A DNA stretch of 20,000 nucleotides from an uncultured virus (IMG/VR IMGVR_UViG_3300030102_007128) (taxonomy: Duplodnaviria; Heunggongvirae; Uroviricota; Caudoviricetes). Shown piece after piece: positions 1,411 through 19,817 of this stretch. The number at the start of each line of letters is the position of its first letter. The stretch's first letter is position 1. A program made the translations under genes and the position numbers. The notes beneath the pieces were generated by a model. That model was not told the DNA's origin. It worked only from the letters and a program-made list of their open reading frames with translations, and made no database searches. Location of the stretch: IMG/VR virus record IMGVR_UViG_3300030102_007128, one strand, 5' to 3'.

Positions 1411-2085
1411 ATGTTCTCGAAACTTAAAAAACACGCCCTACTGATTTGTATTTTTATGTTATGTTTTTTTATATGGCAAACATTTAGTGCAAATAGTAGA
1501 TTACAAGATTATAAAAATCAAGTAATTAAGTTAAAAGATGGAGAACAATTATTTATTGAGAAGTTAAACGAGAAGGGAGAGAAAATAGCCGAGCAAGACC
1601 AGATAATCTTAACACAAAAAGATGCGATTGCTCACAACCTGCTTGAGATAAGTAATCTTAAAAAAATTAAATCTCAAGTTAAGATACAGACAATAACAAA
1701 GATAGATAGTATATATATCCCTGTTATTGATACGGTAGATAGAATTGTTTATGATACAACAGGTTTAGCGTTATTGAAACTTCCTACAAAGTTTGGTTTA
1801 GAAAGTGAATGGTATTCTATCTTTTCAACTATCAATAAAAATGGTATGTTGTTAGATAGTTTATCTTTATATAATAGACAGATAATAACAATAGGGATGA
1901 AGAGTAACGGTATATTTAAGTCGCCGACACCTTCAGTCGTAGTTAAGAACGAAAATCCTTATGTTAATATAAATAGTATGAATAATGTCGTTATCAAAAA
2001 TGATACACGATTTTATGATAAAAAAGGTTTTTGGTTTGGTGTAGGAGTAGGAACGGGTGTGTTGATACCAATATTAATAAAATAG
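1411..2085 (+). CDS. putative spanin-like/lysis accessory membrane protein
   Basis: N-terminal TM, coiled-coil, beta-rich middle (TITKIDSIYIP, DTVDRIVYDT) and C-terminal hydrophobic FWFGVGVGTGVLI; architecture recalled from Bacteroidota phage lysis cassettes. Confidence 0.45.
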   Translation: MFSKLKKHALLICIFMLCFFIWQTFSANSRLQDYKNQVIKLKDGEQLFIEKLNEKGEKIAEQDQIILTQKDAIAHNLLEISNLKKIKSQVKIQTITKIDSIYIPVIDTVDRIVYDTTGLALLKLPTKFGLESEWYSIFSTINKNGMLLDSLSLYNRQIITIGMKSNGIFKSPTPSVVVKNENPYVNINSMNNVVIKNDTRFYDKKGFWFGVGVGTGVLIPILIK

Positions 2086-2087
2086 AG

Positions 2088-4993
2088 ATGAATAAAACAG
2101 AAGACATAAAAAAACAACTTGAAAATCTATCAGATGATGATGGATATATTGGCTATTACGAGGCTCGAAATTTTTTACAATCTAATTTACCTGATTTAGA
2201 TGAATTTGAGTTAGATGAGGCTATGGAAGATTTAGAACCTGATTATTCAAATTATGAAGATGAAGAGGTTTTTTATGTATTAGATGTAGAAAATAAATAT
2301 GATGAATTAAAAACATCTTATGCAAAAGGAGGTAAAATAAAAATGTATGATGAATTACAGGAATATGAAAACGATGCTCAAATAGGAGATAAAATCTATG
2401 TAGGATATGGACTTGCTAAAAAAAATATAACTAAACCTGAATACGAGGTGGTTGGTAAAAACCCTGATGGAACAATAAAAGTAAGAAATTATGGAAGTAA
2501 GGCAAAGAAAACTTTTTTAACATTTGGTCCGCAATCTTATGATGAGCAAGTTATGGTGTTTTCAAAAGGCGGGAAAATAGATGTAGTTGATGAAAGAAGT
2601 GTAGGTAAAATGAAAATAATTGTTTTGAATGATGGTAAAACTTCAAGAACAATAACTTTCAAAGATGGAGTTCAAAATAAATTCAATAGAAACAAAAAAG
2701 AAGATATAGAAAAACTTTGGGATTTGTCTGGTAAAGTTCCTTACGGCACGATAGTAGATAAAAACTACAAGTTTGAACACGGTGGTAGTATATTAGAGAA
2801 ATCTTATAATCCTCAAGAAGTTTTTGATATGATAACTCAAGCAGGAACTTGGGAAGAATTTATGAGTGCAGACGGAGATGGTAGATTAGAAATATATAAT
2901 AACGCAAAATACAGATTTGAAAAGGGTGGTAAAACAATAAGCAGAGAAGAAGTAGTAGAAGTCCTTAAAGATAAGTTAGAAGATGTATTAGAAGATGCTA
3001 ATCAAGAATATGAAGGACAAGAAATAACAGGAGAAGAGGTAGAATACGAAAGTAGAGATGGTTTTATACCTTATACTGATGGGGGTTATGAATACAGATT
3101 TTTTACATACGGAAACTATTTGACAGGTTCAGGAAAATCTTTACCTACAAATACTTTAGATGCTGAATTAGAAAGAGTAGAAAATCTAAATTATGAATAT
3201 GGCAAAGAAAGATTTGAAGAAGAATATCCTGACATAGTAAAAGAATTAGGAGGTATTGAAAATGTTGATTATAATTCCTTATCTGAGGCAGGTTATGAAA
3301 GTGAGGCAGATGATTTAGATGAGTTTTCGAGAAGTGATGATGATAGTATTATGTTTGAAGTAGAAGCATTTTATTACAAACCTGATAATGATAGAGGTGT
3401 TGATGGTAAACATACAATCGTATTATCAGGAAGTGTAAATATGGAGGCGCCTTATCACCGAACAGGTAATATGGAAGATTATATACAAGAAACATTCACT
3501 TTTGATAGTATAAAAGATTTAGAAGACAAGTTAGATAAATCTATACCTAAAATAGAGGCTTGGTTTGATGGAGATAATTATAAACAAGGAAAAGAATTAA
3601 AAATGGGAAGATTTGAAAAAGGTGGTGAGGTTGAGAAACACTATAAAATAGAGTTTTTAGATGAAAATGAAGAGATTATAGATGTTGAAAGATATGGAAA
3701 CACAGAGCCGGACCAAGATGATTACTATGAGATGGCGAGCAAATTAAACGCATTTTCTGGAATTGTTTATAGTTATGATGAAGATGATGAAGATGGCACC
3801 TTGAAAGATGAGGGTTTTTATGAAACTGATTTTGGTGTTTTTCAATATAAAAAAGGTGGTTTAATCAGAGAATATATCAAACCAAAAGGAATGAGATTAC
3901 TTTCTGATGAAAGAAAACAAAAAATAAAAGAGGCACAAAAAGAGTATGATAAAAAACCAAACGACATAAATCAAGCAGCATTACAAGGACAAATAGATAG
4001 AGCAGTAGATGAGGTAGAAAATAGAGTAATGGGTATTGATGGAAAATACGAAAGTTATTTAGTTAGATATGCAAAAGGTGGTAGAATTTTGGTAGGTAGA
4101 TTTGATGAAAAACAACTTAAAAATAAAGAGGATAAAAAAGCGATAGAAAAGGCACAAAAAGAAAGTGGCTTAACATATATAGATAGTAAAATCATTAAAA
4201 AAGGTGGTAAAATGTTTATGGAAGTTTATCTAATCCCTAATGAAGAATACTATAAATCCTCAAAATTTTCAAAAGGGGGTTATGTTACCTCAAGAAATAT
4301 AAAAGAGAGTGTAAGAGAGTATTTAATGGATAAGGTGCCTTATGTTCGAAAGCCTGTTGATTTAGAAGAGGTTAATACGGTATTAGATTTTACTAAATTA
4401 CCTGATGATGTGAAAACTGCTATCTTAAATATGAAAAAAATAGTAGTAAGAGATGATGAAGATTTATCTTTCTTCAAATCAAGATTAGATGGAGATATAC
4501 AATTCTATATTCTATTTATTAAAGGAGAGCCTTATTTAGTAGATACACAGGGATACGATTACGCTCGATATATAGTAAGAATAGTTGGGGCAGGAGAAGA
4601 GTTAAGTGTTAAATTATCTAATTATGTAGAATACACCCCTTATGCAAAAGGTGGTATAATAACAGGAGCAGGAAAACCAGGTTTAGATAAAATTAAAAAA
4701 ATATCTAAAGACAATCCAAGTCAAATGTATAAGGTAACTGATGATAATTATACAAATATTGGAACCTTTTATCTTAAAAATGGAAAGTTTGCTAAAATGA
4801 CGGTTTCAAATGCAGATTATGATTTTGCTTACAACAAAGTATCATTAAGACCTAAACGAGATGTTATATATAAAGCAACAGAGATAGAAGNNNNNNNNNN
4901 TTCGCAAAAGGAGGAAAAGTAAAAAGTAATAATAACGAAATGATAATTGGAGGTTTAGCAGGTATTCTGTTTGGCTTCTTATTAAATAAATAA
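2088..4993 (+). CDS. modular polyprotein-like protein with ten [FY]x[KH]GG linkers and a C-terminal membrane anchor
   Basis: Likely start is the ATG at 2088, 2 nt after the upstream TAG. After the N gap (4891-4900) the frame beginning at 4901 reads FAKGGKVKSNNNEMIIGGLAGILFGFLLNK* and stops at 4993, 1 nt before the next ATG. Confidence 0.85.
2319..4915 (+). repeat. dispersed peptide repeat [FY]-x-[KH]-G-G-x-[IVT], 10 copies
   Basis: Motif starts at 2319 YAKGG, 2559 FSKGG, 2772 FEHGG, 2916 FEKGG, 3612 FEKGG, 3846 YKKGG, 4068 YAKGG, 4266 FSKGG, 4641 YAKGG and 4901 FAKGG; degenerate IKKGG at 4194. Confidence 0.95.
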
Positions 4994-5936: not shown

Positions 5937-7013
5937 ATGTCAGGAAATATAACACAAGGATTCGGTTTTAACAAAGGAGGAAGTTCAGGAGGTGGAGGAA
6001 CTAATACCAATATTGCTAACGCTGATTTAACAAGTGATGGAAATCACACTTTAGATGTAGCAGCCACTACACTAACAATAGATAGTGGAGCAGTTGATAT
6101 GGCTAAATTTAACGGAACAACTAATAAAATAACATTTGGACCAAGTGGGGATGACTATACATTTCCTGATGAAAGACCAGGAGCAACAGGTGATGTTTTA
6201 AGTGCCGCAGACACAAGTGGTAATTTAGAGTGGATAACTCCAACACCTAATACTAATACGAATGTCGCAAACGCTGATTTAACATTGGATGCGAACCATA
6301 CAACTGATGTTGGCGCGAATACTTTAACATTTGATAGTGGAGCGACTAATATAGCACAATTAGTAGGTGGTGATAATACTTTGTCTATCGGTGGGGCTAA
6401 TCCTTACAAAATGCCTACCGCAAGATTAGGAACAGCAGGAGGGGTTATACAATCAACAAACACAACAACAGGAACTGCTTGGGTAAGAAATGGATTTACA
6501 TTACCTTTTCGTTTATATTTGGATGGTGTTGGAAATTTTAACTACTATTATCCAGAACCAATGACTAACAACAAGGCGTTGGCCTTGGCGAGTGATGCTG
6601 GTGCTAATGCAGTTGGAAGTTTAAGTTTTACGACACCAAATGTTTTGAGAAGAAGTTTAGCCTTACCAGGAGGAGCAGGTATTTCTATAAGAGATATTTC
6701 TTTTTGGGGTTCTTGTGTTGATAATGTTGCGAGTACCACACCACAAATAGAGGTAAATATTGTTCAAACGACACCTATACAAGCAAATACGGCAAATTTA
6801 GGAGTAACAAGTGTTATTGATGCGACAACAACAGGTTCAGGTGACAACAATAGTAGATTATATAGAGCCACTAAATCTTTAGCGACACCGGTAGATGTAG
6901 GGCAATATTCTTTTATAATTCCTATGTTCAAATTAATTGTGGAAGAAGCACCTGAAGAGATAAATTATGATGTTTATATAAATGGAAGTATCTCTGGTTA
7001 TTATACAGCCTAA
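5937..7013 (+). CDS. putative spike/fibre (receptor-binding) protein
   Basis: G/T/N/A-rich, N-terminal poly-Gly linker, two 84-aa-period repeats, YTFP..G..G.VL....SGNLEW fibre-like motif and beta-rich C-terminal domain. Confidence 0.6.
   Translation: MSGNITQGFGFNKGGSSGGGGTNTNIANADLTSDGNHTLDVAATTLTIDSGAVDMAKFNGTTNKITFGPSGDDYTFPDERPGATGDVLSAADTSGNLEWITPTPNTNTNVANADLTLDANHTTDVGANTLTFDSGATNIAQLVGGDNTLSIGGANPYKMPTARLGTAGGVIQSTNTTTGTAWVRNGFTLPFRLYLDGVGNFNYYYPEPMTNNKALALASDAGANAVGSLSFTTPNVLRRSLALPGGAGISIRDISFWGSCVDNVASTTPQIEVNIVQTTPIQANTANLGVTSVIDATTTGSGDNNSRLYRATKSLATPVDVGQYSFIIPMFKLIVEEAPEEINYDVYINGSISGYYTA
6000..6485 (+). repeat. two tandem ~84-aa repeats in the spike-like protein
   Basis: TNTNIANADLTSDGNHTLDVAATTLTIDSGA (6000) vs TNTNVANADLTLDANHTTDVGANTLTFDSGA (6252); period 252 nt. 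Confidence 0.9.
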
Positions 7014-7363: not shown

Positions 7364-8128
7364 ATGTGGTTAGATAGTGAAAACAACTCAAATTTCGGAG
7401 TAAATCAATATGAAGATGATGGCTTTTTCAATCATATAAATTGGTTCACAACATCAAGTCATAATGAAAATCACAGATATAATGATGTTTATGCAAATTA
7501 TCAAAGTCAATACCCTGCTTCATCAAGTGATTCCTGCGCAGACCTGAAAATTGCTTTAGATGGTATGAAAAGTAAAGTGGCGAGTGCAAATGCGATGAGT
7601 ACCGGTAGTTCAGGTCAAAGAAGAGTAAGAGATAGACATATAAAAGCGTCAAAAGCCTGGAGAGATAAAATACAAGGATGGTATAACGCAGGTCAATGCG
7701 ATGCTGTATTAACAACAACAACACCAGGGTGTACCAATCAATCAGCATTAAATTATAATCCTAATGCCGACCAAGATGACGGTTCTTGTGTGTTTCCTTC
7801 CGCAGTAGTTTATGGATGCACGGATTCTGGAGCCACTAATTATAATTCAAACGCAACTAATGATGACGGAAGTTGTCAATACCCGCCACCTGTTACCACA
7901 ATATACGGATGTATGGACCCTGATGCGAATAATTATAATAGAAAGGCAACTCAAGAAGACGGTTCGTGTGTTTTTCCTGCTCCTACTAATATATTTGAAA
8001 CACCAACTACAATAACAGAAGAAGAAATAGACGGAGGTGAAGAATTGAGAAGTGAAGATATGACAATGTGGTATGTAATAGGAGGTGCTTTAGCATTAAC
8101 AATGGGATACATATTATTGAAAAAATAA
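7364..8128 (+). CDS. tail-anchored protein with three GCTD (GCxDxxAxNYNxxAxxDDGSC) repeats
   Basis: Three Cys-bounded repeats, P/T/E-rich stalk and C-terminal WYVIGGALALTMGYILLKK. Confidence 0.88.
   Translation: MWLDSENNSNFGVNQYEDDGFFNHINWFTTSSHNENHRYNDVYANYQSQYPASSSDSCADLKIALDGMKSKVASANAMSTGSSGQRRVRDRHIKASKAWRDKIQGWYNAGQCDAVLTTTTPGCTNQSALNYNPNADQDDGSCVFPSAVVYGCTDSGATNYNSNATNDDGSCQYPPPVTTIYGCMDPDANNYNRKATQEDGSCVFPAPTNIFETPTTITEEEIDGGEELRSEDMTMWYVIGGALALTMGYILLKK
7727..7978 (+). repeat. three GCTD-type peptide repeats
   Basis: GCTNQSALNYNPNADQDDGSCVFP / GCTDSGATNYNSNATNDDGSCQYP / GCMDPDANNYNRKATQEDGSCVFP. Confidence 0.95.
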
Positions 8129-8524
8129 ATGAAAGCAAAAGGTATAATAGTAGATAACGAAAGTGGAGAAGTATTATCACGAGCAACAATATTCGTTAGT
8201 GATAGTAATGGAAACCCGGTAGAAAACTCAAACAAAGTAACTGGTGATGATGAAGGCGTTTTTGAAATTGAAGTTATGCCTGCTGATTATATTACAATTT
8301 CTTATGTCGGGTATGAAAATAAAGTTGTTGCTATAAAAGAGTTTTCATCTGATTTGAAAGAAATAGGTTTAAGATATATATCTGCTAAAGACGGCAACAC
8401 AGGATATTTCAAAGAAAGAGATAATGAAACAGATGGTTCTTTATCAAATAAACCAATCAGTATGTGGGTGTGGGTAGTGATAGGAATAGTAGGGTTTTAC
8501 ATATATAAAAAATATAAAAAATGA
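8129..8524 (+). CDS. carboxypeptidase-regulatory-like (CarbopepD_reg_2-type) domain protein with C-terminal TM
   Basis: KGIIVDNESGEVLSRATIFV...DDEGVFEI...ITISYVGYE pattern typical of the N-terminal domain of SusC-type receptors; MWVWVVIGIVGFYIYKKYKK anchor. Confidence 0.75.
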   Translation: MKAKGIIVDNESGEVLSRATIFVSDSNGNPVENSNKVTGDDEGVFEIEVMPADYITISYVGYENKVVAIKEFSSDLKEIGLRYISAKDGNTGYFKERDNETDGSLSNKPISMWVWVVIGIVGFYIYKKYKK

Positions 8525-9144
8525 TACAATTACAATCAAATATGAGAATCCGTCATTATTTAGGAGGAACAGGTCCTAACTCTCGTTCAATGGTTATGGG
8601 AGTAGCAACGGGTTTATGTAGAAACAATCCTCAATCAGGTATATATGAGTGTGAGATTATGACTGATGAGATAAACAGAACAAAAAGATGGATGCCAAGA
8701 ACAGAACTTACTGCTATTGGTAACACAGGAACTAACTCTATTGAAAACAAGCCTCAAGTGTGGATTGATAATATGATGGCTCAAAGAGGTAGTTTAATAG
8801 CGACTAATTTTAATTCTGTAAACAACACACCTACACAGAATACACAATTTAACAATCTTATGATAAAACAAGGACTTCCTCATAGAGTAGGTCCTGGTAA
8901 TGAAAAACTTGAAAAAAATTATACAAGTCAAGATGATTGTCCTTCTGGCACAATTTTTACTACACCTGATGGAGGAGCATCTGTTGGTAAGTGTATTCCA
9001 ATAGACATAACAGAACCAGAAGGATTAGGAAAAATAACACCAAAAACAGCAGGCGTTGGAAAAGGTTTTCCACTACCAGCAATATTAATAGTAGGAGGGT
9101 TTTTATATTACGCCTACACAAAAGGATTATTAACAAAAAATTAA
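8521..9144 (+). CDS. tail-anchored hypothetical protein
   Basis: ATGA overlap with upstream gene; two Cys pairs; C-terminal LPAILIVGGFLYYAYTKG. Confidence 0.8.
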   Translation: MIQLQSNMRIRHYLGGTGPNSRSMVMGVATGLCRNNPQSGIYECEIMTDEINRTKRWMPRTELTAIGNTGTNSIENKPQVWIDNMMAQRGSLIATNFNSVNNTPTQNTQFNNLMIKQGLPHRVGPGNEKLEKNYTSQDDCPSGTIFTTPDGGASVGKCIPIDITEPEGLGKITPKTAGVGKGFPLPAILIVGGFLYYAYTKGLLTKN

Positions 9145-9150
9145 AATATT

Positions 9151-9690
9151 ATGACCAGTATAGCGTGTAATAGAAGAGGAGTTTGTGGGACACAAATGCC
9201 AGGAGTACCCTCACTACCAGGACCTACTCTTCCGCCTTTCCCACAGAAAACACCAAATTATGATATAAAAGTAAATTGTGCAAACGAAACAGGATATCCT
9301 AAATGTTTGATACCAACGACTACTTTTGCACCTGTTTGTAAGGTTATGCCTGACCCACAAGTCGAGGTAAATTGGACACAATGTGTTGCAAGAAAACTGA
9401 ATACAGAGCCTACTACGGTTCGCCCTATTGATAGACCAAGACCGATACCAGTTCGACAGCCAGGTCAAAAATGTAGTGATTTTAGTTTTGGAACTCAAAG
9501 AAACGGACCAAAATGTCCTGCTGATTGTACCGGAAACCCTTTACAATCTCTTTTAGAAAGACAAAGAATGGGAGGAGGTAGATGTAGAAGTAGTAGTTCT
9601 TTGGGTTACATATCAGAAAAAACAGGTTTAACTAACACAGGAATATTAATAATAGGAGGTTTACTCTTATATGCAATTTTTAAGAAATAG
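9151..9690 (+). CDS. Cys/Pro-rich tail-anchored protein
   Basis: Many Cys and Pro; ends GILIIGGLLLYAIFKK. Confidence 0.8.
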   Translation: MTSIACNRRGVCGTQMPGVPSLPGPTLPPFPQKTPNYDIKVNCANETGYPKCLIPTTTFAPVCKVMPDPQVEVNWTQCVARKLNTEPTTVRPIDRPRPIPVRQPGQKCSDFSFGTQRNGPKCPADCTGNPLQSLLERQRMGGGRCRSSSSLGYISEKTGLTNTGILIIGGLLLYAIFKK

Positions 9691-9692
9691 AT

Positions 9693-9818
9693 ATGAAGTT
9701 CAAGCATCCATTAGATACAAAGTCATTCATAATAGGGGTTTTAGCCTCTGTAACGGCTGTTGTATTGTGGGATATCATAAAATATGAACGAAAACTGCTT
9801 GAACATAAAAATAAATAA
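9693..9818 (+). CDS. small single-TM protein (41 aa), not in ORF track
   Basis: MKFKHPLDTKSFIIGVLASVTAVVLWDIIKYERKLLEHKNK*; 2-nt spacing to both neighbours. Confidence 0.8.
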   Translation: MKFKHPLDTKSFIIGVLASVTAVVLWDIIKYERKLLEHKNK

Positions 9819-9820
9819 GA

Positions 9821-10042
9821 ATGTATTACAATATAGAAGGTGTAAAAGATGAAGATGTAGGTAGAATAATGGCTAAATGGGCTTATATCGGTGTAGGTGT
9901 AGGTTTATTAGCAACTTATTCTTATTTAGGTATTATGAAAACTAATAAACAAAAATTATTTATTGGTTCATTATTTACATTAGGAGGTTTAGCAGTAGGA
10001 AGTTATATAGGAACAAGAGAAGTAGAAAACTTAAAGAAATAA
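9821..10042 (+). CDS. small 2-TM Gly-rich membrane protein
   Basis: WAYIGVGVGLLATYSYLG and LFIGSLFTLGGLAVGSYIG. Confidence 0.8.
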   Translation: MYYNIEGVKDEDVGRIMAKWAYIGVGVGLLATYSYLGIMKTNKQKLFIGSLFTLGGLAVGSYIGTREVENLKK

Positions 10043-11365: not shown

Positions 11366-11574
11366 TGAAAATAACAGAAACACAAACAACAACAATTAAA
11401 GAACTATCAAAAAGTCAAAACATTCGACTTATTGATGTTTTTTTTATAGGTCCCTTTATGATGTATGTAGGTTATAAAGCGAAAGGCATAACAGATTTAG
11501 AAAGATATATGTTGTATGGATTAGGGATTGCTACAATATATTATAATGGAAAAAACTATTTAAGTAATAAGTGN
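11365..11574 (+). CDS. small 2-TM viral membrane protein
   Basis: TAATG overlap start; KSQNIRLIDVFFIGPFMMY...GIATIYYNGKNY; probably ends NK-TGA at the gap edge. Confidence 0.75.
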
Positions 11575-11589
11575 NNNNNNNNNTAATAA

Positions 11590-12267
11590 GTGAGAACAAG
11601 AAATGCCATAATAGGAATAAGTATTGGTCTTGTAGTTATGACAGGAGTAATTCTATTATCTCGTAGATTAAGATTGTCAGGATTTAAGAAAAGAGTTGTT
11701 GATAATGCTATAAGAGAATGGAAACTATGGGGAAAGCCTATTAGGTCTGTTTCAGGCGATTTTCAGGGAGGAGAAACAGAATGCACCCCGATATATAAAG
11801 AAAGAGTAGGAGAGTATTGGAAAAAAGGCACAGGTAAAGATATTGACGGATGTGATAGAGGAACACCTTGGTCATCTGCTTTCATATCGTTTATAATGAA
11901 AAAAAGTGGAGCAGGTAATGATTTTGTTTACTCTTCATCTCATTCTAAATATATACGAAGTGCTATATCAAACACAAAGTCAGGTGGAAAATATCCATTT
12001 ATGGCTTACAGGTTATCAGAAAAACCCGTATCTTTGGGCGATTTAGTTTGCTATTCAAGACAATCAGGAGTAGATTACAATACAACCGGCTCTTACAAAT
12101 CACATTGTGATATAGTAGTAAAAGTGAGTAAATTAAGAGGTATTATAGAAGTGATTGGAGGTAATGTAGCAGATGGAGTAACCAAAAGAGTTCTTAAAAT
12201 CGATAGACAAGGATATCTAATCGACAAAAGTAATGATTGGTTTACTATAATAAAGATAAATAAATAA
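11590..12267 (+). CDS. DUF2272-type (CHAP/NlpC-P60-like) putative peptidoglycan hydrolase with N-terminal anchor
   Basis: PWSSAFISFIM, SHSKYI, GDLVC, SHCDIVV and IGGNV motifs; N-terminal TM followed by RR. Confidence 0.75.
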   Translation: MRTRNAIIGISIGLVVMTGVILLSRRLRLSGFKKRVVDNAIREWKLWGKPIRSVSGDFQGGETECTPIYKERVGEYWKKGTGKDIDGCDRGTPWSSAFISFIMKKSGAGNDFVYSSSHSKYIRSAISNTKSGGKYPFMAYRLSEKPVSLGDLVCYSRQSGVDYNTTGSYKSHCDIVVKVSKLRGIIEVIGGNVADGVTKRVLKIDRQGYLIDKSNDWFTIIKINK

Positions 12268-12268
12268 A

Positions 12269-13582
12269 ATGGACGGATATTTACTTGACTTAAAAAACCA
12301 TTCAACAGACGCTCAAGAGATAGATTTATTTAACTCGAGTGACCAAGATGGTAGAAGCACAGGTATAACTTGGATATTTCAATGTAATGAAATGTTTGCT
12401 TATGGTCCTAATCCTGTCTATAATACAGCGAGTGGAGAGTGGTTTGACCAGGCAATTAGTGCTAATCCAGGAACTATAACCGTAAGTTATGAATTGCCTG
12501 GAGGAGGTTCAGCGTCAAAAACAGCCACAGGACTCGTAGATGTAGATTTTGTTCATATCGCAGAAAAACTTAATGACCCTGGTGTGGGAGATACAGGTGA
12601 TATCGGAGTTTGGAGTGTAGTAAAAACAGGTACACAAAATTTTCAATTTATATGTGCGGTAAAAGAGAGTTTTGAAGGTAATCTTGACTTAACTACTCGA
12701 ACTTTAGGCGCAGAGGCTATCAGTTTTACAGGAACAGGGTTTACTACTTTTACATCAGATGCGGTTGATAATCCTAATGACTTTTATAGAAGTATGGCTT
12801 CTAATAAAAATATTCAAATATCTACTTTTAATGATTTTGACTACACTCAATTTTTATATTCTGTTACTCAAAGAAATTATGATGTAAAACAATTCGAAAT
12901 ATTTTCTGCTAATAAAAATCAATTATTAGAACCTTTTTTATTTGACAGAAAGTTAGCAACAGGTAAAGTATATCAAAAGGTGCTTACACCTACAATCGAC
13001 CCTTATCAGTCAAACAACTACTTAAGAACAGATGACAGAAAAGGTTATATCATAGATGGATTTACAAAATTAAAATATAAAATTTTACCAAGTTCATCTG
13101 CAAGATTAGTGATGAGATATAACTATATTGATTTAGCCACACCTCTAATAGTTAGAAAAGTAGAAAATGACTTATATTCTAATCAAGCAGGGCAATACAA
13201 CCCTAATGTTCTTACTCCACTAAATGCTACATTTATTAATAATATAAATACAGGTTACGATAAGTTTGGTTGTAAATTCTTGAACTCAAGGTTAGCCATT
13301 CAAGAAAGTAAATTAAATGATTTAGTGTCGGCAGGAACCAACCCAAGATGGCAAGATTTCTTGAAAGAAAGAATACAATATATTAAAGACAAACTCTCAT
13401 CAGAAGGTTGTAATGTGGAACCAGAAGTGCCACAATTTTCAACAATAGGAAGTCAATATAGGCCAAGAGATTTGTTTATTCCTACAAATGATTTCATTCA
13501 GCATCAAATAAACGAAGAACAAGGTATAAATAAATTAATAGAAGATACTGACTTTCCAATAGACAAAACCGAAGTTTCATAG
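12269..13582 (+). CDS. putative virion structural protein (beta-rich, possible jelly-roll) with C-terminal Cys-bracketed helical hairpin
   Basis: Alternating beta-strand pattern; YxQFL, NQLLEP, PTIDPYQ and IDGFTKL motifs recalled from an uncharacterised family of uncultured-virus proteins. Confidence 0.5.
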   Translation: MDGYLLDLKNHSTDAQEIDLFNSSDQDGRSTGITWIFQCNEMFAYGPNPVYNTASGEWFDQAISANPGTITVSYELPGGGSASKTATGLVDVDFVHIAEKLNDPGVGDTGDIGVWSVVKTGTQNFQFICAVKESFEGNLDLTTRTLGAEAISFTGTGFTTFTSDAVDNPNDFYRSMASNKNIQISTFNDFDYTQFLYSVTQRNYDVKQFEIFSANKNQLLEPFLFDRKLATGKVYQKVLTPTIDPYQSNNYLRTDDRKGYIIDGFTKLKYKILPSSSARLVMRYNYIDLATPLIVRKVENDLYSNQAGQYNPNVLTPLNATFINNINTGYDKFGCKFLNSRLAIQESKLNDLVSAGTNPRWQDFLKERIQYIKDKLSSEGCNVEPEVPQFSTIGSQYRPRDLFIPTNDFIQHQINEEQGINKLIEDTDFPIDKTEVS

Positions 13583-16479: not shown

Positions 16480-16745
16480 ATGATAAGTAAAGACAAATAT
16501 AACAACACTATCGAGTTTAGTATAAACACTTTAGATGAAGTTATTAAAGCCAAAAAGAAAGGTGTTGAAATAATNNNNNNNNNNCTAAAAAGTATGTTGA
16601 GCATTATTCAGAAAAAACCAGAGATTTGATAGGCACTTCAGAATTACAATTACTTATTTTAGAAAAAAGAAAAAAAGTAGGAGACAATAAGTTTACTAAA
16701 AGAGATTGGAATAAATTAATAAAATCTTTTCAGAAAAATGCCTGA
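16480..16745 (+). CDS. hypothetical protein(s) interrupted by a scaffold gap
   Basis: MISKDKYNNTIEF...GVEI before the gap (16575-16584); KKYVEHYSEK...SFQKNA* after it. May be one gene or parts of two. Confidence 0.55.
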
Positions 16746-17858: not shown

Positions 17859-18163
17859 TGAACAAAATATTATTAGTCATATTATTTTTCTTAATAGGTC
17901 ATATTTTAATATGGATTCAAACTAATGGGCAGTTTTTATGGAAATTTTTTGAAAAAAACCCTATTCTTTTATCTTTTACTTTTGGTGGAGTTATTTCTTA
18001 TTTTTTCATAATGGCTACTAAATATTCTTATCAATCATTTGATGAGTTAGTATCTTATGCAATTCTTACATACATATTACTTAATGAAGGAGTTACCACT
18101 AAAACCCTAATCTGTTTAGTGTTGTCTTTACTAATTTTAACTATACAATTATTATGGAAGTAA
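17858..18163 (+). CDS. small multi-TM membrane protein (SMR/DMT-like)
   Basis: 101 aa, 3-4 hydrophobic helices; WxQxNGQF and LxEGxTxKTL motifs. Confidence 0.6.
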   Translation: MNKILLVILFFLIGHILIWIQTNGQFLWKFFEKNPILLSFTFGGVISYFFIMATKYSYQSFDELVSYAILTYILLNEGVTTKTLICLVLSLLILTIQLLWK

Positions 18164-18939
18164 AAAACGCAGAACATTATTTAGAATTAGTTAAAGATTG
18201 GAAAGACCCTTATCCTATGCCTGAAATAAGACACTTTGGCGACATTATAGTTGTAAGAGATGATTTATTAGAAGCAGGTTCTAAAACAAGATTTTTAGAT
18301 TTATTAATACAATCGACAGATGTTGATGAGTGGGTTTTTGGAGGAGCGAACAAAATAGGTTGGGGTCCAACATCTTTAGCGTATTTATGTAAAAAATATG
18401 GTAAAAAATGCACTACTTTTTGGGCAAAAAGAAACAAGCCGACACTACAACAACAAATGTATTTAGATTATGGCGGAAAAATAGAATGGGTAAATATGGG
18501 TATGTTAACCGTTACCAAGGCAAGAGCCAGAAAGTATTATGAAGAAGATACGAAAAGAAGAAAACTTCTGCCTTTAGGTTTGGAAGATGATTTAGTTAAG
18601 GGTTGTGCCATAAAAGTTATGAGAGAAATGGCTGATTATCATAACATAAAACCAGAAAGTTTGTGGTCAGTAGGCTCAAGTGGAACACTAAATCGTAGTT
18701 TACAAATGGCCTTTCCTGAAGCAGATGCTAATGTTATTCAAGTAGGACACAAAATGACAGAATATGAAATAGGCAGAGCCAAACTTTATATTGCTGACTA
18801 TAAGTTTGACAAAGCCGTCAAAGAAGATGAAAAACCCCCTTTCCCTTCTGCTCCTGAATACGATGCTAAAGGATGGAAAATAATGAAAGAAAATAGAGAT
18901 AAATCAAAGTGTAATTTATTTTGGAATGTAGCGAAATGA
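18154..18939 (+). CDS. fold-type II PLP-dependent enzyme (TrpB/D-cysteine desulfhydrase/ACC deaminase-like)
   Basis: VRDDLLEAGSKTR (Schiff-base Lys motif), SVGSSGT phosphate loop, PEYDAK and LFWNV. Confidence 0.85.
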   Translation: MEVKNAEHYLELVKDWKDPYPMPEIRHFGDIIVVRDDLLEAGSKTRFLDLLIQSTDVDEWVFGGANKIGWGPTSLAYLCKKYGKKCTTFWAKRNKPTLQQQMYLDYGGKIEWVNMGMLTVTKARARKYYEEDTKRRKLLPLGLEDDLVKGCAIKVMREMADYHNIKPESLWSVGSSGTLNRSLQMAFPEADANVIQVGHKMTEYEIGRAKLYIADYKFDKAVKEDEKPPFPSAPEYDAKGWKIMKENRDKSKCNLFWNVAK

Positions 18940-19498: not shown

Positions 19499-19817
19499 AC
19501 AGAAATAAATAAATTGATAATACTAAACATATACTTACTAATAGGCTTTATAGAATACTTTAGATATTCTAAAGAGTTTAGAAAAAAATTACGAGAAGAT
19601 TATCCTTTTCATNNNNNNNNNNNNNNNNNNNNNNNNCTCCATTATTAATTTTTAAGATATTGTCTTACATAAAAGATTTTCTTTATAAAATATATAAAAA
19701 GTTTACTTTTCCTTTTAGATTGTTGATATTTAGAAATAAACTAAAGAAAATGAGTAAAGAAAAAGATAACAAAAAAGCAGTAGAAATGCTCTTTGATGCT
19801 ATGCGAGATGTATTAAA

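Follow-up and report, generated by a model that had tools for sequence, protein, structure and literature searches.

The window analysed here is a stretch of 20,000 nucleotides (IMG/VR record IMGVR_UViG_3300030102_007128) from an uncultured marine bacterial virus. It is AT-rich (31% G+C), nearly all of its longer open reading frames (ORFs) lie on the plus strand, and one of these, at 2088-4890, encodes a polyvalent protein made up of small modules (S1 to S10) between which a short peptide of the form [FY]x[KH]GG, the joint, recurs. The ORF starts at an ATG (2088) that is shared with relatives and runs for 934 codons up to a run of 10 N at 4891-4900; the encoded N-terminus is acidic and not signal-like. 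Four N-runs occur in the window (4891-4900, 11574-11583, 16575-16584, and 19613-19636; 10, 10, 10, and 24 bases, respectively), and they do not give true lengths because the first of them shifts the frame of the polyvalent gene: the reading frame is unequal on its two sides, and when the run is read literally as 10 nucleotides the tail encoded behind it falls out of frame and the ORF stops at 4922. The assignment of this tail to the polyvalent ORF is well supported by relatives with the same tail; that of P0002 is 90% identical to it over 30 amino acids (aa), and in P0086 the end of S9 is followed by the motif and the tail (P, L, and G numbers denote related proteins, loci, and genomes, respectively).

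The joint peptide and the modules between its copies

Nine copies of the motif were found in the translation of 2088-4890, at residues 78, 158, 229, 277, 509, 587, 661, 727, and 852, and a tenth (FAKGG) starts at nucleotide 4901, right behind the N-run; the 25 residues after it form a tail that contains a hydrophobic stretch, and the stop codon is at 4991-4993. The segments delimited in this way are 77, 80, 71, 48, 232, 78, 74, 66, 125, at least 83, and 30 aa long, and 10 of the 14 Gly-Gly dipeptides lie inside the motif. The composition of the protein predicts 0.115 copies, the maximum among 20,000 shuffles was three, and a six-frame scan of the full window gave only one extra match, at nucleotide 5967. 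A preliminary description of this DNA had given ten copies, the same segment lengths, and Gly codons that vary from copy to copy; all of this was reproduced with the new translation. At 45 related loci, 256 strict motifs were counted in the 44,559 aa of 51 motif-rich ORFs versus 40 in the 107,924 aa of the other 514 ORFs. The consensus over 342 distinct contexts was [Y 59%/F 39%]-[A 66%/E 18%/K 6%]-K 94%-G-G-[K/E/S]-[I/V/T/L 92%], and K-G-G was near-invariant (94-100%) across diverged lineages that differ in their preferred Ala codon. A-K-G-G is present in 4 of the 10 joints of the window.

No model of Pfam (E<=0.01), PHROG, or NCBIfam matched the 934-aa protein, a tblastn search of 50,697 phage records with the protein found nothing, and neither the whole protein nor S5 alone gave a usable match as a single query against IMG/VR. 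The KGG stress-induced repeat (Pfam family KGG) was ruled out by the same Pfam result.

The modules are all encoded on the plus strand. S1 (77 aa, acidic; 2088-2318) is always the first module in the five proteins of its own cassette family; its BLAST matches are P0001-P0003, P0087, and P0092. Junction 1 (YAKGG, 2319-2333) precedes S2 (80 aa; 2319-2558 with the junction, as for the following modules), which is 91% identical to a cassette of P0079. Junction 2 (FSKGG) and S3 (71 aa; 2559-2771) follow; in BLAST searches with the segments, S3 was found at other positions in P0002, P0055, P0058, and P0019 and also in motif-free proteins. S4 (48 aa, behind FEHGG at junction 3; 2772-2915) is 87% identical to the N-terminal part of P0104, a NeuB-family protein. 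S5 (232 aa, behind FEKGG at junction 4; 2916-3611; AlphaFold2 mean predicted local distance difference test score [pLDDT], 87) is the most widespread of the large modules, and S6 (78 aa, behind FEKGG at junction 5; 3612-3845) is the second module in P0002, unlike its position here. S7 (74 aa, behind YKKGG at junction 6; 3846-4067) and S9 (125 aa, behind FSKGG at junction 8; 4266-4640) were delimited by the motif and by segment BLAST. S8 (66 aa, behind YAKGG at junction 7; 4068-4265) matches a cassette of P0059 with 100% identity over 65 aa; by BLAST, the 1558 residues of P0059 hold no other module of the window. S10 (at least 83 aa, behind YAKGG at junction 9; 4641-4890) is the most shuffled cassette. 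P0104 is a 256-aa, sialic-acid-synthase-like protein that itself opens with a stub and the motif (MKIKKSYEKGG); S4 and some other cassettes may be captured gene fragments.

Junction 10 (FAKGG, 4901-4915) is followed by the C-terminal tail cassette KVKSNNNEMIIGGLAGILFGFLLNK and the stop codon (4901-4993 in all, plus strand). Within it a transmembrane (TM) helix, MIIGGLAGILFGFLL, is predicted at 4940-4984 (plus strand), with Gly at every fourth residue; it was read off the sequence and not with a topology program. Protein ends were surveyed in 139 distinct motif-rich sequences, fragments included, of which 121 start with Met. The same tail was present in 28 of the 139, with the consensus ...K-G-G-x-V-K-K-K-x-N-E-M-L-I-G-G-L-A-G-I-L-L-G-I-F-L-x-K, and is predicted from these letters to be a glycine-zipper-like membrane anchor. 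The C-terminal anchor of the preliminary description is therefore also a conserved cassette in its own right. Other ends in the family are basic or acidic helical tails, and some relatives open with a hydrophobic N-terminus.

Structures of two modules were predicted with AlphaFold2, using a 16-row alignment for S5 and a 39-row alignment, with 15 upstream residues added, for S10. In the S5 model (mean pLDDT, 87.1; predicted TM-score, 0.80), residues 1-5 (FEKGG) had a pLDDT below 50 and the confidence dropped again just before the next motif. The S10 model was weaker (mean pLDDT, 63.9); its residues 1-19, comprising the upstream tail and the joint, had a pLDDT below 50, and its first strand begins right after G-G. 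In both modelled modules the joint is predicted to lie in a flexible linker, and in S10 the beta-branched residue after G-G is predicted to open the next domain, so that the motif falls in disordered linkers and not inside a fold, in keeping with the separately folding segments suggested before. The S5 alignment has invariant Asp, His, Glu, and Asn residues, an enzyme-like set. Foldseek searches with the S5 model against PDB and BFVD gave no match at E<=0.001, and the best VIA-wide Z of 7.5 was within the noise range; for S10 (model pLDDT, 64) the best Z was 4.8 and the ESM Atlas gave no match.

Cassette exchange and selection at the joint

In a large protein collection, 76 relatives of similar length and 31 shorter ones were found. 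Most share just one or two segments with the protein of the window, placed elsewhere in the chain, and they have up to 17 motif copies. When each of the ten segments was used singly as a BLAST query, the alignments began and ended at motifs, and S10 was found in 40 proteins. For clustering, 71 proteins with at least three motifs were cut at the motif; the resulting 631 segments fell into 290 families (204 singletons), and in 2623 of 4141 high-scoring segment pairs the alignment covered at least 80% of each segment. The S10 family comprised 27 proteins, in which the module stands at indices 2 to 16 and has 15 left and 19 right neighbour families. Both full-length homologues and motif-trimmed fragments, with their shuffled modules, defeated alignment with MAFFT.

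The exchange point was located with 385 distinct junctions. Residues from -4 to the aromatic one track the upstream cassette (conditional entropy about 0.4-0.6 bits, versus 0.95-1.7 bits given the downstream family), and residues after G-G track the downstream cassette (0.5-0.7 versus 1.1-1.5 bits). Because the two flanks follow the upstream and the downstream cassette, respectively, and K-G-G is near-invariant, the cassette boundary lies inside x-K-G-G, and modules are swapped as whole cassettes exactly at the motif. The ten segments of the window have no similarity to one another and are found separately in other proteins, the many-domain make-up of polyvalent proteins. The suggestion that the segments are independent evolutionary modules is thereby confirmed, since they recur in other orders and in other proteins. 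The stand-alone homologues that had been looked for along with other module orders proved scarce in the close lineage: single-module proteins are rare among close relatives, and short matches are mostly contig fragments.

A Pfam scan of 45 relatives found ArdA in seven (N-terminal, middle, or C-terminal), RelA_SpoT in three, and Zeta_toxin, Eco57I methylase, DUF5824, DUF7659, DUF2958 (E=4e-4, on the curated cut-off), and NeuB in one each. On related IMG/VR contigs, adjacent motif-bearing proteins carry Zeta_toxin, DUF5824, and ART-PolyVal, the ADP-ribosyltransferase (ART) found in polyvalent proteins. The gene context is viral. Because its relatives and neighbours carry ArdA, RelA_SpoT, Zeta_toxin, Eco57I, and ART-PolyVal, the gene product is placed among phage-type polyvalent proteins sensu Iyer et al. 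(2017). As to the effector cargo of the preliminary description, relatives with ArdA, RelA/SpoT, zeta toxin, Eco57I-type methylase, and ART-PolyVal speak for it, but the modules of the window themselves match no family.

A search of IMG/VR with the S5 alignment gave 10 loci, and a metagenome scan with the same alignment gave 71. At 45 of the 71 the S5-bearing ORF has at least three motifs, and all of these contigs have 27-39% G+C. On contigs with at least 41% G+C, S5 homologues stand alone (about 195-270 residues) or within large proteins, without motifs apart from two cases with one or two; the motif is also absent from some AT-rich large proteins, e.g. L086 (1611 aa). The S10 core was found at 24 IMG/VR loci in proteins of 200-750 residues, and a single motif copy was present in one of 22 ORFs examined and none in the rest. 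Since S5 and S10 homologues elsewhere are mostly motif-free, the joint is a trait of one lineage and not of the domains. A scan of bacterial genomes with the S5 alignment gave no match, so no host was identified.

Codon usage was surveyed in 226 distinct junction 27-mers from 45 metagenome loci; the junctions are related by descent, and the counts are given without P values. Synonymous variation was found at every junction position (second Gly, GGT 109, GGA 66, GGG 33, and GGC 18; Ala, GCA 95 and GCT 82; Tyr, TAT 89 and TAC 56), and the flanks are kept by residue class and not by codon (Y/F in 98% before, I/V/T/L in 92% after). Since codons vary while K-G-G and the flanking residue classes stay conserved, these counts indicate that selection acts on the joint peptide itself, as had been suspected from the Gly codons of the window. 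The first Gly is GGT in 172 of the 226 junctions versus 43% elsewhere in the same genes, and the Ala codon is uniform per lineage (L001/L003 use GCT at 20 of 20 junctions, the window GCA at 4 of 4; background, GCT 35% and GCA 47%). Such uniformity would fit copying or recombination of the joints at the DNA level as well. A signal at the level of RNA or DNA, with the motif as a by-product of a AAAGGAGGT-like Shine-Dalgarno sequence that drives internal initiation at each module, might account for the two of ten window copies that read AAAGGAGG. It is extremely improbable: the majority of copies read AAAGGTGG or GGC/GGG, the residue two codons past G-G is I, V, or T and a start codon there is rare, and no Shine-Dalgarno sequence precedes either of the gene starts viewed (2088 and 4995).

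Known systems and the fate of the chain

In the main text of Iyer et al. (2017, J Bacteriol; PMC5512222), phage-type polyvalent proteins are described as polypeptides of phages or conjugative elements with 2-15 unrelated domains each, with a repertoire including ArdA, ART, RelA/SpoT, kinases, and methylases that is packaged in the virion and delivered into the host with the DNA. They are predicted there to be processed into units, and a zincin-like MPTase peptidase hub is reported in about 36% of them and hence is not obligatory (PMC5512222). The family of the window resembles them in its many unrelated conflict domains (in relatives), viral coding, and extensive mosaic domain shuffling. It differs in having no MPTase or other peptidase module (window protein and 45 relatives), one conserved joint peptide at every boundary, very small modules (48-232 aa in the window), and a conserved C-terminal membrane-anchor cassette, and in belonging to a virus without recognisable terminase or portal. 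The delivery system had been considered unusual for a bacterial virus, a novelty that was overstated, since multi-effector polyvalent proteins were described in 2017 (PMC5512222). The terms 'linker', 'glycine', 'KGG', 'GG motif', and 'transmembrane' do not occur in the main text of that paper (FTP supplements outside the scope), and no description of the joint peptide was found in titles and abstracts searched for motif strings and for polyvalent proteins with cleavage sites. The protein class is already known, and for the joint peptide no published description was found.

Gly-Gly-directed proteases include adenain, African swine fever virus pS273R, poxvirus I7, coronavirus papain-like protease (PLpro; LXGG), and deubiquitinases acting on polyubiquitin. 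The chain encoded in the window resembles their substrates in its head-to-tail units at x-[K/R]-G-G, with a basic P3 and G-G at P2-P1 as in ubiquitin-like tails. It differs in that the hydrophobic residue is at P5 and not P4, in the bacterial host, and in that scans of the window, of G001 (a complete relative), and of the neighbour families revealed no protease of C5, C48, C57, or another clan CA/CE family, nor did a search of G001-G003 for C48. The GlyGly-CTERM/rhombosortase signal consists of a C-terminal Gly-Gly, a TM helix, and basic residues on a secreted protein; no match of the 30-aa tail was obtained at E<=0.01 with NCBIfam, which contains the GlyGly-CTERM model, and a tail this short may escape a hidden Markov model.

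Cuts in phage tape measure proteins were also compared. According to the passages on pb2 in Linares et al. (2023; PMC10038345), R1127 is the last residue before the cut in this T5 tape measure protein, and the cut separates a hydrophobic stretch from a peptidase domain. In the T5 record, the R1127 bond has FVPR on one side and AEGGMMYPGV on the other. The host is reportedly involved in the cut of a T5 tail protein, to judge by the title of a work by Zweig and Cummings from 1973. For lambda, the passages on gpH in PMC12617516 give a conversion to gpH* and gpHC by a cut in a glycine-rich region, with site and catalyst unknown. T5 pb2 resembles the joint in being cut beside A-x-G-G followed by a hydrophobic residue, a likeness that comes from one mapped site and is a lead, not membership. 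It differs in its single site versus the repeated joint and in its cut before Ala and not after G-G; Ala itself is found in 4 of 10 window copies and in 66% of the 342 contexts in relatives. Unlike the T5 and lambda tape measures, the protein of the window has no tape-measure family match, and no tail gene was recognised in the window or in G001, a complete relative, besides a 159-aa Phage_lysozyme2 protein.

The joint is a candidate processing site that would free the modules, a reading to which we give slightly less than an even chance. At least ten independently folding, exchangeable cassettes and the membrane-anchor cassette at the C-terminus would form one polyvalent chain, with one short peptide, [Y/F]-[A/E/K/S]-K-G-G-x-[I/V/T], in a flexible linker at every cassette boundary. 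The tail would bring the chain to the host or virion membrane, the joint peptide would then be recognised, and the chain would be processed into separate small proteins. The protease, which is not recognisable in the examined viral DNA, might be a host enzyme, as has reportedly been proposed for the T5 tail-protein cut, and the conserved joint codons would double as an in-frame joint for cassette recombination between genomes. We know of no general cutting signal for polyvalent proteins; here, one near-invariant short peptide is found at every module boundary of a large family, whose 71 sampled proteins yielded 290 cassette families. Cutting at the joints would make this family a collection of hundreds of separately delimited small viral proteins, probably including many anti-defence factors, and would imply that marine bacteria or their viruses have a GG-directed protease.

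Several results weigh against this processing. No peptidase family was found in a Pfam scan of 20 ORFs of the window except DUF2272 at 11590-12267, no protease family in the 93 ORFs of G001, and no peptidase match besides DUF2272/CHAP in representatives of 40 conserved neighbour families. A six-frame search of G001-G003 with Peptidase_C48 had no match at E<=1, and neither the window protein nor the 45 relatives scanned carry MPTase or another peptidase module. The Ulp1/adenain-like protease of the preliminary description was thus missing from all the viral DNA in which it was sought (the window, G001, G001-G003 with Peptidase_C48, and the 40 neighbour families). A virus-encoded protease of a known family is unlikely, and a novel viral protease or a host enzyme is possible as the cutter. 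In 22 of the 121 Met-starting sequences the first motif lies within 12 residues, behind a stub of 6-9 residues (e.g. MENKLKYAKGG), and in 13 of the 139 sequences no more than 15 residues follow the last motif (several end in ...YAKGGKTRKKVKK); cuts at such stubs would free useless peptides, so a recombination joint or a tag fits these ends at least as well. In other lineages, related domains are fused with no motif (P0026, L086, and L090), so modules need not be freed to work. The effector nature of the ten modules of the window, none of which matches Pfam, PHROG, or NCBIfam, is taken from their relatives.

Two further readings are not mutually exclusive with processing, nor with each other. 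The chain may stay uncut, as a tethered multi-domain protein with its modules like beads on a string, and the motif may be a flexible hinge and an in-frame DNA swap joint that each swap recreates; we regard this as tenable, if on the doubtful side. It would explain why the crossover lies inside x-K-G-G and why joint codons within a lineage are more uniform than the background (Ala in L001/L003 and in the window, GGT at the first Gly), and the N-terminal stubs and the ends right after the motif resemble leftovers of joint-to-joint recombination. The resemblance of S4 to a captured NeuB gene fragment, the lack of a protease in G001, G001-G003 (Peptidase_C48), and the neighbour families, and the presence of recombination genes (RecT and PD-(D/E)XK in G001, PD-(D/E)XK in the window) point the same way. 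A DNA joint accounts less well for an invariant core of merely about 8 nucleotides with synonymous variation around it and for flanks conserved by amino-acid class (aromatic before, beta-branched after) and not by codon, and K-G-G, kept at 94-100% despite Ala codons that differ between lineages, argues for selection on the peptide. If the joints are uncut, the family is a clear natural case of in-frame cassette exchange at a fixed adaptor.

Alternatively, as the preliminary description had also proposed, the motif may be a docking or packaging tag. It would be a short linear motif bound by a partner from the virus or the host (the capsid interior, the membrane machinery, or a chaperone), repeated for avidity and left uncut. 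Motifs close to the N-terminal end (22 of 121) or the C-terminal end (13 of 139) of the protein suit a tag and not a cut, as do the ART-PolyVal proteins, which terminate in ...RFEKGGKI and ...FNKGGYVRI; the joint is exposed and disordered in the models, and a conserved 224-aa membrane protein is encoded directly upstream at 12 of 14 loci. A tag need not mark every boundary or coincide with recombination breakpoints, and no partner was identified; we consider this reading unlikely.

Neighbouring genes and the type of virion

The 224-aa protein (1411-2085, plus strand) is the conserved upstream neighbour of the polyvalent gene. It has hydrophobic N- and C-terminal segments, a heptad-rich stretch that looks helical in the sequence, and a middle/C-terminal domain; it was ruled out as a protease, having no conserved His or Cys. 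Clustering of the neighbours of the 45 motif-rich loci gave a conserved gene order of superoxide dismutase, a 62-aa ORF, the 224-aa protein, and the polyvalent gene; at 12 of 14 loci the 224-aa gene immediately precedes the polyvalent gene. The Fe/Mn superoxide dismutase (529-1200; Sod_Fe_N and Sod_Fe_C, E 1e-22 to 1e-32) is encoded two genes upstream of the polyvalent gene, and this was seen at 14 related loci. In relatives resembling G001 (L001, 1979-5124; L003, 4281-7205; L004, 3424-6605), a conserved block is flanked by two polyvalent genes. The block codes for an AAA_5/MoxR-like ATPase of about 450-470 aa and for a protein of 520-610 aa that matches DUF7192 weakly; the two may be a chaperone pair for polyvalent proteins.

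CHAP enzymes have their catalytic Cys in a motif. The DUF2272/CHAP-like protein at 11590-12267 has an N-terminal signal-anchor and W-S-S-A-F at the position of the CHAP Cys, and is unlikely to be the junction protease. It was the only papain-fold candidate and is 52% identical to its counterpart in G001; among the phage records, it and the 261-aa protein described below matched only distant cultured relatives. Most simply it looks like a cell-wall hydrolase, and it may be a signal-anchored one with an unusual nucleophile.

The complete relative G001 (loci L011-L014; 68,799 bp; 100% complete by CheckV) has inverted terminal repeats of about 125 bp, read from both ends. Apart from the Phage_lysozyme2 protein, no terminase, portal, HK97 capsid, or tail gene was detectable in its 93 ORFs. 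It encodes a 270-aa ATPase with weak FtsK/HerA/Zot-like matches that is always followed by a conserved protein of 230-450 aa (window, 12269-13582). The guess that the 350-aa protein of G001 is a capsid protein was unsupported (poor model, TM-score <=0.43, no family named), and sequence searches of PDB with the ATPase, the G001 350-aa protein, and the 358-aa protein of the window, and with family profiles of a 437-aa protein and the ATPase, gave nothing significant. As read by eye at ORF ends, many small proteins of G001 have a hydrophobic, membrane-anchor-like C-terminal tail, and at least five such tail-anchored ORFs lie at 7364-10042 in the window. From its gene content the lineage might comprise tailless viruses whose virions have an internal membrane; no described membrane-containing flavobacterial virus of this kind was found in the literature. 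A wider proposal, distinctly unlikely in our judgement, makes the joint a universal adaptor for cut-and-paste exchange of viral cassettes: its conserved codons would allow in-frame recombination of any of hundreds of small effector cassettes, and a host or new viral protease would then cut x-K-G-G to release them, possibly in a non-tailed lineage. If so, the anchor would load cargo onto the internal virion membrane, a setting in which polyvalent proteins are explicitly said not to occur.

Two other products of the window were considered. The 358-aa protein (5937-7013) has a Gly-rich N-terminus (FNKGGSSGGGG) and repeats of the form N-x-A-N-A-D-L-T...D-S-G-A; it matches no family and looks like a fibre or spike. 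The 261-aa protein (18154-18939) matches phrog_7093 (threonine dehydratase/pyridoxal phosphate [PLP]-like), and in conflict with this match it is 34-35% identical to annotated DNA modification methylases of Erythrobacter and Microcystis phages.

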